Origin: Prevotellaceae bacterium
Lineage (GTDB): Bacteria; Bacteroidota; Bacteroidia; Bacteroidales; Bacteroidaceae
NCBI GenBank assembly: GCA_031262085.1
Contig: JAISIN010000096.1
Span: 2,471 to 66,470, forward strand
DNA length: 64,000 bases
Direction of reading: 5' to 3'
Part shown: positions 11,130 through 63,723 of the stretch, piece after piece
Numbering within the stretch: the stretch's first letter is position 1
Layout: the number at the start of each line of letters is the position of its first letter
Program-made: the position numbers and the translations under genes
Notes under the pieces: model-generated
Told to the model about the DNA's origin: nothing
Database searches by the model: none
The model's input: the letters and a program-made list of their open reading frames with translations, nothing else

Positions 11130-11169
11130 AAATAAATTAGAGTAAAAAAGTCTGGGATTGTGCCAACAA
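11130..11169. repeat. Direct repeat copy A (40 bp)
   Basis: AAATAAATTAGAGTAAAAAAGTCTGGGATTGTGCCAACAA; matches 12023-12064 with one substitution and a 2-nt indel. Confidence 0.9.
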
Positions 11170-11327
11170 GCGATTGTCGTTAGTCGAAGGAGATGGGAGA
11201 AGTATGGTAGCGACAGAAAAAACGACTGATAACAGCAAGGCATACCAATGGGGCTTCGATTAATAGATATAACACTAAAAATCAATTAATTATAGTTATA
11301 TTCAAGAAGACAACAAGCTCTTATAAA

Positions 11328-11587
11328 GTAGTATCTCTTAGTAAGAGAGCACACAAACAGAAACAGATATGCTTACAATAAATTCGATAATTATAGCATT
11401 ATATAAAGAATGATTCATATCATGCACGCTATTCCAAAATGCTAAAACCACATTTAACGCTTCTTTTGAAACTACTAAAAAATATTTTTCGTTAAAGTTG
11501 CCATTTATGCTTGTACAGCTTGCAAAACACGCTATATTTGTGCCCGAAAGTCTATTGTTTGTGTGCTCTCTTACTAAGAGATACTAC
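11328..11587. promoter_or_regulatory. Invertible promoter segment: 32-bp IRs at 11328-11359 and 11556-11587 enclosing 196 bp
   Basis: GTAGTATCTCTTAGTAAGAGAGCACACAAACA has an exact reverse complement at 11556-11587. Inside is a + strand Bacteroidetes promoter: CTTG 11510-11513, 19 nt, then TATATTTG 11533-11540. Confidence 0.88.
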
Positions 11588-11772
11588 ATTGGGGGGGTAC
11601 GAATCATCGCCATTTCTATTTGTCATTCTTCTGTACTATTTCATTTCAAAATAGCAACAAGTCATACGTAGACGCGTATAAACAATTGCAGCTTATCGCT
11701 TGCTGTAATATGTAAGCAAGGGATAAGCTGTAAGCAAACTCCACTCCTTCAGGAAGGATTCGTTATAGAGCC

Positions 11773-11960
11773 ATAAAAGATCGGTTTTTCAGGTTACGAG
11801 CAGTCGGCACTTTTTAGACCGTTCGTTCGGCACTTTTTAGACCGCTCGTTCGGCACTTTTTAGACCGCCCGTTCGGCACTTTTTAGACCGCTCGTTCGGC
11901 ACTTTTTAGACCGCTCGTTCGGCACTTTTTAGACTGAACTTATCAAAGAAGACGGAGCGT
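11773..11960 (+). repeat. Copy 2 of the 23-bp-unit element (leader, 1 partial + 5 full units, half hairpin)
   Basis: Leader ATAAAAGATCGGTTTTTCAGGTTACGAGCAG; units CG(C/T)(T/C)CGTTCGGCACTTTTTAGAC at 11804(partial)-11934; tail TGAACTTATCAAAGAAGACGGAGCGT. Confidence 0.95.
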
Positions 11961-11962
11961 CA

Positions 11963-12015
11963 GGGCAACCGCAACAAAAATAAAGTTAGCCCCATTAGTT
12001 TTGTTGCGGTTGCCC
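11963..12015. repeat. 17-bp perfect inverted repeat with a 19-nt loop
   Basis: GGGCAACCGCAACAAAA (11963-11979) / TTTTGTTGCGGTTGCCC (11999-12015). Confidence 0.9.
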
Positions 12016-12022
12016 AGACCCG

Positions 12023-12064
12023 AAATAAATTAGAGTAAAAAAGCCTGGGATTTTGTGCCAACAA
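12023..12064. repeat. Direct repeat copy B (42 bp)
   Basis: AAATAAATTAGAGTAAAAAAGCCTGGGATTTTGTGCCAACAA, immediately downstream (minus strand) of a TACATTTG box at 12066-12073. Confidence 0.9.
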
Positions 12065-12085
12065 ACAAATGTAGCACGACTATCG

Positions 12086-19218: not shown

Positions 19219-20421
19219 TTATCGGGCAGTTTTAGCAGTCTCGATAACAGCCATACGGTTCAGTCGTGCAGCGCCAAACGAATCAACGCCGCCCTTGCCT
19301 TCGGCAGTCAACTTAGCTTCATCTACGCCATAAGTCTTTACCAAGGCATTGACTACGGCTTGTGCACGTTTCAAGCTCAATTGCTGGTTGTACTCGACCG
19401 AACCGGTCGACGAATCGGCATAACCGCTTACAACATAAGAGTTGCCCGAATTTTTGATTTGATTAGCCATATATGCCAAGCTCGATGCCGATTCGGAAGA
19501 GATGGTAGCCGAGCCTATTTTGAAGAACACCGGTCCCATCTTCCCAACAGGCACCTCTTTCACGACCTCTTTTTCTACAATCTCCTTCTCGGGTTGCTTC
19601 TTGGCAGCAGCCAGGGCATCTTGCAGTTCACGATTCAGCCGGTCGCGCTCGGCAGCCATCCGGGCAATGCGGTCTCTCATCTCATTCAGCTCGTCGGTCG
19701 GCATTTGAGCCGCCGTTTTAGAGAAGGTACGTCCCGGGAAACGATACGTCAAGCCTAACGTGACGCTTGCCAAACCGTCGTGGCTATGACCGCCGCCAAT
19801 CTCACCGTCGAACTTGTCTTCAACAAACAAGCCGCTCAGCTCCAGATTGATGTCGATAGCTTTGCCTACCCGGAAACGGTTCACAAGACCGCCGTTCAGC
19901 CCTAACGAATTTCTGTGAGGAGCATCATAACTGTGCACAATACCTGCACCGAGATAAGGAATAAACTCGTACACGCGCTTCTCGTTATAACCGAAGAAGA
20001 GTGTGCTCAAATTAAACATGGCATCACCATGCAGATTCATGTAATCGAATTTCTGCGTATAAAGACCATTTACAGCAGCACCGTCGGTATAGGTACCTCC
20101 GGTATAGTAAGTTACGCCCTTGGCCTGCAATCCGCTGTACTGCACGCGCAAACCTAATCCCGGAGTAAACCATTTACCCAAAGCAACATTTAATGTAGGG
20201 CTGATTCTGTCACCAAAGTCGGCTTTACTATCGGCTTCGCCGAACATCACTGAAACACCTCCCCCGGCGGAGATAAACCAATTGTGCCAAAACTTGTTGG
20301 TAAGCACTTGAAACTTGTTTTGCTCTTTGGCAAATCCATCACTGTTCGTTGCAGCGCCGTATTGCGCAAATGCAACCGTCGACATGCCGGCAAAAGCCAG
20401 CGCCATTAGATACTTTTTCAT
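19219..20421 (-). CDS. OmpA family outer-membrane protein
   Basis: Signal peptide, beta-barrel (NWFISAGGG, GKWFTPGLGLR), coiled linker, and OmpA C-terminal domain (VFFKIGS, GYADSSTG..YNQQLSLKRA, LNRMA); TACCTTTG box at 20561-20568. Confidence 0.92.
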   Translation of the reverse strand: MKKYLMALAFAGMSTVAFAQYGAATNSDGFAKEQNKFQVLTNKFWHNWFISAGGGVSVMFGEADSKADFGDRISPTLNVALGKWFTPGLGLRVQYSGLQAKGVTYYTGGTYTDGAAVNGLYTQKFDYMNLHGDAMFNLSTLFFGYNEKRVYEFIPYLGAGIVHSYDAPHRNSLGLNGGLVNRFRVGKAIDINLELSGLFVEDKFDGEIGGGHSHDGLASVTLGLTYRFPGRTFSKTAAQMPTDELNEMRDRIARMAAERDRLNRELQDALAAAKKQPEKEIVEKEVVKEVPVGKMGPVFFKIGSATISSESASSLAYMANQIKNSGNSYVVSGYADSSTGSVEYNQQLSLKRAQAVVNALVKTYGVDEAKLTAEGKGGVDSFGAARLNRMAVIETAKTAR

Positions 20422-35882: not shown

Positions 35883-35970
35883 ACGTCTAACGGTGGTTGT
35901 ACGCGCGTCCAACGACCGTTAGCCGCGCGTCCAACGGCCGTTAGACGCGCGTACAACCACCGTTGGACGC
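35883..35970. repeat. Four tandem 22-bp quasi-palindromic units (REP-like)
   Basis: ACGTCTAACGGTGGTTGTACGC / GCGTCCAACGACCGTTAGCCGC / GCGTCCAACGGCCGTTAGACGC / GCGTACAACCACCGTTGGACGC; the idealised unit GCGTCCAACGGCCGTTGGACGC is a perfect palindrome. Confidence 0.85.
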
Positions 35971-63224: not shown

Positions 63225-63267
63225 CTGTCATTATATGGGTTATCAGGCGCAAAAGTAATGATAGATA

Positions 63268-63351
63268 CACGATTCTCAAAATCTTTATCCGCTAAATACG
63301 CACGATTCTCAAAATCTTTATCGTTCCAAACGACACGATTCTCAAAATCCT
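63268..63351. repeat. Three direct repeats with an exact 33-bp period
   Basis: CACGATTCTCAAAATC(TTTATC) starting at 63268, 63301 and 63334; spacers CGCTAAATACG and GTTCCAAACGA. Confidence 0.9.
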
Positions 63352-63418
63352 ACTAAATAGGAGACGCGACAGTTCCTCAAAGTTACGCGATTTATGCGGG
63401 TAATCTTTGTAGATAGGA

Positions 63419-63653
63419 ATAAAAGATAGGTTTTTCAGGTTACGAGCAGTCGGCACTTTTTAGACCGCTCGTTCGGCACTTTTTAGACCGCTCGCTCGGC
63501 ACTTTTTAGACCGCTCGCTCGGCAACTTTTAGACCGCTCGCTCGGCAACTTTTAGACCGCCCGTTCGGCACTTTTTAGACCGCTCGTTCGGCACTTTTTA
63601 GACTGAACTTATCAAAGAAGACGGAGCGTTAGTTTGTCGCTCCGTCTTTTTTT
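63419..63653 (+). repeat. Copy 3 (complete) of the 23-bp-unit element: leader, 1 partial + 6 full units, hairpin, T7
   Basis: Leader ATAAAAGATAGGTTTTTCAGGTTACGAGCAG; units 63450(partial)-63603; tail TGAACTTATCAAAGAA-GACGGAGCG-ttagtttgt-CGCTCCGTC-TTTTTTT. Confidence 0.95.
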
Positions 63654-63723
63654 GGTACAAAGTACTCACAGAACGGAGTAGAAGTACACGGTCGGAGTCG
63701 CTTAGGCAGATACCCCTTTTTTT

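Follow-up and report, generated by a model that had tools for sequence, protein, structure and literature searches.

The window analysed here is a stretch of 64,000 nucleotides (nt) that corresponds to positions 2471-66470 of contig C66 in the draft genome of an uncultured small-genome Bacteroides (134 contigs, 3.18 Mb, 90.6% complete). It contains three copies of a dispersed element, hereinafter family A, each of which includes one or more 23-bp units. Family A is probably (with a probability of about 0.6) a lineage-private, non-coding, non-autonomous mosaic of intergenic repeat DNA, selfish or neutral, with a minisatellite core. Sequence comparison indicates that it has the architecture, without the sequence, of BrickBuilt, the minisatellite-bearing MITE (miniature inverted-repeat transposable element) from Porphyromonas gingivalis (Klein et al. 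2015, Mob DNA 6:18, PMC4596501). Coordinates given without a contig prefix refer to the window.

A Tandem Repeats Finder (TRF) search identifies two 23-bp arrays, the first at 11804-11934 (score 248; 5.7 copies with 97% matches) and the second at 63450-63603 (score 252; 6.7 copies with 93% matches), and, combined with a unit-by-unit layout, confirms the three copies and the unit counts claimed in an earlier note on this DNA. The window contains 14 occurrences of the 16-nt core of the unit, TCGGCACTTTTTAGAC, on the + strand only, with 0.04 occurrences expected from shuffled sequences. The general plan of a copy is a leader of ~33 nt, 1 to 6.7 spacerless units of 23 bp and a tail of 16-19 nt, and the parts of the three copies are located as follows.

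421-443, + strand: copy 1, single unit (CGCTCGTTCGGCACTTTTTAGAC), without a leader
444-456, + strand: copy 1, tail (TGAACTTATCAAA), 3 nt short of the tails of the other copies
457-488, + strand: copy 1, hairpin GACGGAGCG-ttagttgt-CGCTCCGTC followed by a T-run
11773-11805, + strand: copy 2, leader, made up of 21 nt (ATAAAAGATCGGTTTTTCAGG) followed by 12 nt (TTACGAGCAGTC)
11806-11934, + strand: copy 2, array of one partial and five full 23-bp units
11935-11959, + strand: copy 2, tail (TGAACTTATCAAAGAAGAC), overlapping the left arm of the hairpin, GACGGAGCG, at 11951-11959
11963-12015, no strand: 17-bp inverted repeat foreign to the family, GGGCAACCGCAACAAAA / TTTTGTTGCGGTTGCCC (11963-11979 / 11999-12015)
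63419-63451, + strand: copy 3, leader
63452-63603, + strand: copy 3, array of one partial and six full units, two of them with GGCAAC
63604-63622, + strand: copy 3, tail
63620-63653, + strand: copy 3, hairpin GACGGAGCG-ttagtttgt-CGCTCCGTC followed by T7

The unit-by-unit layout also bears out the claim that the units vary mostly in their first 7 nt (CGCTCGT, CGTTCGT, CGCCCGT or CGCTCGC); the GGCAAC variant is present in two family A units, both in copy 3. In agreement with the proposal that the arrays are neither CRISPR nor coding sequence, the units abut without spacers, stop codons keep appearing in all frames, and no open reading frame (ORF) spans an array in the window copies. Copy 3 is the most complete form of the element. 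The terminator-like hairpin GACGGAGCG/CGCTCCGTC is complete only in copies 1 and 3, that is, in two of the five family A copies in the genome, and its state varies by copy from present to halved to absent; in copy 2, the unrelated 17-bp inverted repeat stands where the family A hairpin would be. Thus, the proposed succession of leader, units, tail, hairpin and T-run holds for copy 3 and, without the leader, for copy 1, whereas copy 2 retains the left arm only. The suggested pairing between leader and unit also finds support: ACGAGCAGTC in the leader is complementary to GACCGCTCGT in the unit, with one mismatch, and this pairing is present in predicted folds; the last 12 nt of the copy 2 leader are complementary to the unit's variable portion. 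The unit itself is not palindromic, its best internal stem being 3 bp long, and the predicted folding compared with shuffled sequences gives z -1.6 for the + strand, which is not significant, and z -3.3 for the - strand.

A search of the whole assembly, as advised in the earlier note, detects two additional copies and brings the total to five, with 1 to 6.7 units each.

C84:19849-20010: leader, a partial unit and four units, tail
C107:1-109: at least four units and tail, the array being cut by the contig start

The leader is common to copies 2, 3 and the C84 copy, and the tail to all five. Copies 2 and C84 both have CGTTCGT as the variant in their first unit, and their junctions with an adjacent motif that resembles a terminal inverted repeat (TIR) are identical (...TTCGTTATAGAGCC|ATAAAAGAT); the CGCCCGT unit is found in copies 2, 3 and C84. 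Because the unit variants and the junction are shared, whole arrays were copied from place to place instead of arising separately, with the unit number changed afterwards. Between copies, the units are 92-100% identical, whereas the adjacent paralogous genes show just 69-76% identity; given that the units are far more alike than the flanking paralogues, either the spread is recent or the copies have been homogenised.

Family A is private to one species. The search across Bacteroidales that the earlier note called for yields no match to the family among the 250 sampled genomes of Bacteroides species; 40 relatives lack it, and so does the sister species, G043, whose serine dehydratase-family (SDH_alpha) gene shows 91% identity, a relatedness figure that reflects this one compared gene. 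An exact-pattern scan for two consecutive unit cores finds none in the species-genome, metagenome and viral collections, a blastn search against plasmid and phage records gives no match (in either case, records of this genome itself may be missing from the data searched), and neither does Rfam at the gathering threshold for the whole window. Accordingly, the impression that the family is not a recognised one holds as far as Rfam is concerned, but a described relative in architecture does exist, namely BrickBuilt (PMC4596501). The sister species shares the SDH_alpha gene beside copy 3, with synteny stopping immediately after it; the flank of copy 2 is missing from this species and is not syntenic in four other relatives; and the C84 copy is flanked by an ogt-like gene and a 6S RNA gene that are not adjacent in relatives.

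The contexts of family A are all chromosomal and include a capsule locus, genes for KAP-type NTPases with FGE-like domains, and 6S RNA. All five copies are located downstream of a minus-strand gene or RNA, so that the claim of co-oriented copies 3' of minus-strand genes, made for the three window copies, extends to the entire family. Copy 1 follows a GT8 glycosyltransferase gene on the minus strand and copy 2 a gene for an AmiA-like amidase; copy 3 and the C107 copy follow two paralogous KAP-type NTPase genes with FGE-like C-termini, and the C84 copy follows a Bacteroidales-1 (6S) RNA gene. Copy 1 gives the GT8 gene its last 20 codons and TAA stop: the TTA at 438-440 in its unit is this stop codon on the minus strand, the hairpin encodes, on the opposite strand, part of the 20-residue C-terminal extension of the protein, and a GT8 paralogue at 1421-2365 stops ~20 residues sooner. 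The same copy fills the junction between the GT8 gene and a PIG-L deacetylase gene within the capsule operon (these features lie at 341-437 and 438-500).

An invertible promoter is located on the leader side of copy 2.

11328-11587, + strand: invertible promoter of the capsule genes; its 32-bp inverted repeats occupy 11328-11359 and 11556-11587

Its TATATTTG box (11533-11540, + strand) faces the copy 2 array, and with respect to the capsule genes on the minus strand this orientation is OFF; together with the inverted repeats, this substantiates the claim that an invertible promoter in its OFF state points into the array. A general tie between arrays and the OFF side of invertible promoters was considered and dropped, given that only 2 of ~5 such loci show it. 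The promoter and copy 2 are bracketed by a ~48-bp direct repeat (11130-11177 and 12023-12072, 88% identical). At the C84 locus, the Bacteroidales-1 (6S-type) RNA gene (C84:20120-20297, minus strand; Rfam RF01693, 171 bits) is ~110 bp from the family A tail, and the spacer between this gene and the ogt-like gene consists of ~350 bp of stacked small repeats; in one relative, only ~60 bp separate the 6S gene from its (different) neighbour gene.

The boundaries of the copies are mosaic. The first 21 nt of the leader (ATAAAAGATAGGTTTTTCAGG) occur without an array at C66:1078-1098, and a further module adjoins the leader of copy 3.

63375-63418, - strand: promoter-like cassette with a TAACTTTG box at 63378-63385, abutting the copy 3 leader

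The ~65-nt cassette is common to window positions 63375-63439, C66:1031-1098 and, in part, C118:~480-540; it is found immediately upstream of minus-strand genes that are unrelated, the first 21 nt of the family A leader form its distal end, and it resembles a mobile promoter module. Between this cassette and a DUF4143 ATPase gene there is a 33-bp repeat in 2.5 copies (63267-63349). On the other side, beyond the tail, copy 3 and the C107 copy share a 62-nt module (GGTACAAAGTACTCACAGAACGGAGTAGAAGTACAC...) that is present at C96 without the element.

63654-63715: 62-nt module beyond the copy 3 tail
C107:113-160: the same module beyond the C107 tail
C96:7541-7602: the same module without the element

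This module is located downstream of paralogous genes with FGE-like C-termini, and the C96 site is paralogous rather than allelic. The leader has neighbours of its own: a GGCTCTATAACG-type motif adjoins it in two family A copies, and copy 2 holds only 15 nt of the neighbouring motif that is full-length next to the C84 copy. The GGCTCTATAACG-type motif is absent from 60 other Bacteroides genomes, and it has no plasmid match; on both grounds, the possibility that it is the end of a known insertion sequence (IS) was dropped. The TIR-like motif, (CATTACCCATTGAAA)ACGTTATAGAGCC, which is private to this genome and for which no parent IS was found, has ~28 intergenic copies in the genome, some of which pair in inverted orientation over 54-90 bp, like tiny MITEs; 14 of all 37 genomic matches to it are within 250 bp of a 22/23-bp array.

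C23:18324-18377, C47:1408-1461, C69:23743-23826, C21:51014-51101: examples of the TIR-like motif
11759-11772: TIR-like motif to the left of the copy 2 leader

A 103-bp segment upstream of two Ser/Thr-kinase-FGE paralogues (C120:16974-17076 and 19844-19946) ends in GCTCGGCACTTTTTAG; this sequence is similar to the core of the family A unit and directly adjoins the GGCTCTATAACG motif in one copy, and the segment could be a relative or the source of the family A unit.

The shared boundaries of the family A copies show neither TIRs nor target-site duplications, the leader aligns with the reverse-complemented tail over 8 nt only, and the recommended search for a larger copy with a transposase and for target-site duplications found neither in the draft genome. 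The suggestion that the element is a canonical MITE is therefore not upheld, the IS5-type ends discussed below being absent as well. Taken together, the ragged ends and the lack of TIRs, duplications and a transposase fit patchwork duplication or ectopic recombination better than precise transposition.

Family A is a member of a much larger class. A TRF analysis of the whole genome, in which arrays of at least 2.5 copies were counted, reveals 112 arrays with a period of 22 bp and 33 with a period of 23 bp (145 arrays, 13.6 kb in total), along with 12 at 21 bp, 3 at 24 bp, and almost none at longer periods up to 41 bp. The arrays with periods of 21-24 bp represent ~62 unit families, family A being one of these, that are unrelated in sequence.

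35901-35970 (window): array of another family
C39:17739-18034: further example of a 22/23-bp array
C55:20824-21071: further example of a 22/23-bp array

Nearly all of the 22/23-bp arrays (135 of 145) lie outside ORFs, with a density per kb of 0.37 in convergent, 0.35 in co-directional and 0.23 in divergent spacers; in co-directional spacers, 38 of 58 arrays are closer to the 3' end of the upstream gene. For 43 of the 145, there is no called ORF on one side within the contig, and one family A copy starts a contig. A unit stem of at least 5 bp is found in only about one third of the families, and that of family A has 3 bp, which rules out a hairpin per unit as a general rule. The period is already sharp in two-copy arrays, with 28 at 22 bp compared to 0-2 at each period from 25 to 41 bp; among the arrays of at least 2.6 copies, 88 have a period of 22 bp and 33 one of 23 bp. 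Recombination with a simple length threshold is disfavoured as the cause of the period given that, in exact-run and TRF counts, periods of 24-41 bp are also missing. Because two-copy arrays peak at 22 bp and the 24-41 bp range is empty, a minimum expansion length does not explain this peak.

Other families of the class share parts with family A. A second 23-bp family, family B (CGGTCGTAGGAAAGAGATTCCTA), has a hairpin in each unit and a leader and tail of its own.

C102:50400-50538, C60:120-326, C41:249-386, C65:793-879, C95:241-384: family B loci

Family B adjoins the same GACGGAGCG hairpin, in the inverted position, and each of the five GACGGAGCG hairpins in the genome has as its neighbour either a family B array or a family A copy, the latter being an array or, for copy 1, the single unit. 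Hybrid A/B units at C95:327-384 connect the two families; the similarity between their units is no better than chance. Short flanks are conserved in the largest family as well (ATCTCCCTTTGATGTGAGGCAG, 28 loci), and one of these flanks ends in ...AACGTTATAG(A/C)GCC, the motif that adjoins the family A leader.

Relatives within Bacteroidales possess arrays of a similar kind, the units of which differ in sequence. In the sister species, there are a 22-bp and a 23-bp array built on a GAGTAGA(A/G)GTACTC core, and the GAGTAGAAGTACTC core of the 62-nt module described above forms 22-/23-bp arrays there (L046:1463-1597 and 2426-2551). In samples of ~100 kb each, two other Bacteroides genomes contain short 22-bp arrays, and 100 kb of a large cultured Bacteroides contain one two-copy repeat at 22-bp spacing and no array. 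Around one housekeeping gene, ~15 of ~80 loci contain 21-23-bp arrays. In six Bacteroidaceae (five Bacteroides and one Mediterranea), such arrays occupy the 3' end of one orthologous operon, ~2.3 kb upstream of the SDH_alpha gene, with six unrelated units, most of them hairpin-forming.

L054:630-734, L067:464-522, L070:517-567, L079:862-922, L082:580-643, L086:650-718: operon-end arrays

These observations are best compatible with family A being mosaic repeat DNA that would have no dedicated product. The unit number would change in place through replication slippage or unequal exchange, and the copies would spread when similar intergenic modules recombine ectopically or undergo patchwork duplication, possibly aided in trans by some enzyme, and not through cut-and-paste transposition. 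Any effects are likely to be by-products of position, such as the stop codon and 20-residue tail that copy 1 supplies to the glycosyltransferase, the hairpins and a terminator placed between transcription units, and the location of copy 2 in the path of an OFF-state capsule promoter.

Several observations weigh against this interpretation. Three of the five copies are inside 64 kb, a clustering that neutral scattering does not predict, and all five are identically oriented relative to the tail-side gene; this shared orientation and the hairpin found only beside families A and B hint at a strand-specific, possibly RNA-level, role. The search for empty sites suggested in the earlier note produced no clean orthologous empty site, the putative mobility being deduced from paralogous copies only; synteny with the nearest relatives breaks at every family A copy examined. 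In addition, the sharp 22/23-bp period, seen already in two-copy arrays, is not explained by simple slippage. The orientation could be accounted for by a putative repeat-array RNA, a + strand transcript originating from read-through or incidental promoters, the units of which would bind or sponge a protein or an RNA and which would terminate at the hairpin and U-run. The fullest copies present the array, tail, hairpin and T-run in one orientation, the five copies are co-oriented, the five hairpins all have a family B array or a family A copy for a neighbour, the OFF-state promoter is directed into copy 2, and BrickBuilt regions are transcribed, one of them overlapping a reported small RNA (PMC4596501). 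Nevertheless, we consider such an RNA, although it is the strongest of the competing explanations, doubtful, if worth keeping in mind: no conserved promoter precedes the leaders, the three contexts of which differ; the hairpin is truncated or missing in three of the five copies; folding of the + strand is no better than that of shuffled sequences; the unit core has no complementary target elsewhere in the genome; there is no Rfam match; and copy 1 is inside an operon of the opposite strand. A more specific RNA-level proposal, a type III antitoxin-like array, shares with the alternative of a degenerate CRISPR array a sole resemblance to family A, a spacerless repeat array followed by a terminator. 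Both are refuted by the gene context and deserve practically no credence. As the earlier note had already observed for toxins, no copy has a same-strand ORF downstream, which leaves no toxin gene; the units, as noted above, have no spacers, and there is no cas gene among the annotated neighbouring genes. ToxI-type repeats are 36 nt or more in length, compared to the 23-nt unit of family A.

The period, in turn, is addressed by two further explanations. One invokes a length-measuring process (e.g., an integrase or recombinase that makes staggered cuts, or a fixed-footprint step of replication or repair) that would duplicate ~22-23 bp of any sequence at a time, approximately two helical turns, and so both create and expand arrays, so that leader and tail would be merely the sequence in which the first duplication arose. 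This would agree with the 22-bp peak in two-copy arrays, with the unrelated unit sequences, and with the recurrence of 21-23-bp arrays with different units at one orthologous operon end in six Bacteroidaceae genomes. However, the genome has no RAYT gene and yielded no candidate enzyme, the two-copy arrays could be decayed remnants of longer ones, and the shared leader, tail and unit variants indicate that family A was copied whole and not born separately at each site; the explanation, therefore, seems unlikely. The other explanation is a DNA-level protein-binding array, comparable to iterons or centromeres or serving to phase a nucleoid protein, with units bound on one helix face approximately every two turns. 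A length of 22-23 bp is indeed close to two helical turns, and classic iterons are similarly spaced; the conserved 16-nt core and the variable 7 nt are likewise reminiscent of a binding site plus spacer. Still, this is quite improbable, as is the iteron-like function of the units entertained in the earlier note: no rep or par gene is adjacent, the five chromosomal contexts are unrelated to one another, the family is absent from the sister species, and the period is common to ~62 unrelated units, which makes sequence-specific binders implausible. Thus, mosaic, selfish or neutral repeat DNA remains the favoured interpretation of family A; the fixed 22/23-bp unit length is an interesting residue that it leaves unexplained.

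Considered as a single element, family A is ordinary repeat DNA, although, as far as the literature found shows, a family of the BrickBuilt kind is new to the genus Bacteroides. Arrays of this type interrupt assemblies made from short reads, can alter the ends of genes, as seen with copy 1 and the GT8 glycosyltransferase, and would serve as variable-number markers for strain typing. The 145 arrays and ~62 families constitute a clean data set on what fixes the unit length of minisatellites in Bacteroidales, a question that is not addressed in the BrickBuilt paper (PMC4596501). A length-measuring process, if real, would explain both the ~62 unrelated families with one period and the unrelated arrays at the same orthologous site across species.

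With respect to known systems, several candidates were tried and discarded. Type III toxin-antitoxin (ToxIN-like) loci and CRISPR arrays failed for the reasons given above, namely the lack of a downstream same-strand ORF at any family A copy and of spacers between the abutting units; plasmid iterons failed on the chromosomal contexts, the lack of an adjacent rep gene and of any plasmid match; and a general MITE failed because no terminal inverted repeats, target-site duplications or related autonomous IS were found. REP/BIME elements, which are mobilised by RAYT, resemble family A in being short intergenic repeats, sometimes tandem, at the 3' ends of genes, but the family A unit is not palindromic and the genome lacks a RAYT (Y1_Tnp) gene: a PF01797 search gives no match in the ~90% complete genome, whereas control genomes were matched. 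The BOX elements of Streptococcus pneumoniae, with the structure boxA-(boxB)n-boxC, and the terminator-like SPRITE repeats (PMC10969869) offer another parallel. Like family A, BOX elements have a head, variable internal units and a tail, are located in spacers, and cluster or nest with small repeats and terminator-like hairpins; they differ in phylum and sequence, boxB is 45 nt long, and BOX folds stably whereas the family A array does not, so the resemblance appears to be one of functional analogy only. Closer to home, MITEPgRS/MITE464 of P. gingivalis contains 41-nt tandem repeats inside a MITE (PMC4596501); it is similar to family A in being a dispersed intergenic Bacteroidales element with a minisatellite core, and dissimilar in its 41-nt unit, repetitive flanks and IS5-type inverted repeats.

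The closest counterpart is BrickBuilt, which consists of 23-nt spacerless repeats with a leader and a tail, occurs in 19 intergenic copies with 1-22.8 units, is confined to P. gingivalis and its close relative P. gulae, has no Rfam match, and is flanked by terminators in 10 of the 19 copies; its authors classed it as a MITE on the basis of IS5-type inverted repeats (PMC4596501). Family A shares with it the spacerless 23-nt units between a conserved non-repetitive leader and tail, the dispersed intergenic copies with variable unit number (1-6.7 in family A), the restriction to one species or its nearest relative, the frequent flanking terminator and the lack of an Rfam match. The differences are equally clear. 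The family A unit is unrelated to the BrickBuilt consensus, AGAYCATARTATCCTCTCRTRTG, with 11 of 23 positions matching in the best of 46 rotations and strands, compared to a shuffled mean of 11.4 (P = 0.79), a homology test that covered the unit only. The IS5-type ends GAGACCTTTGCA / TGCAAAGGTCTC are not found in family A: a search of the 600 bp around each copy, with at most 2 mismatches allowed, yields only a match in coding sequence at 524. The leader and tail of BrickBuilt, up to 285 and 318 nt, are ~10 times longer than those of family A (33 and 19 nt), its 19 copies in P. gingivalis compare with 5 of family A in Bacteroides, and family A is but one of ~62 families with the same period in its genome. 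On this comparison of sequences and layouts, family A is filed as a new family of the BrickBuilt kind, neither a member of BrickBuilt itself nor a canonical MITE.

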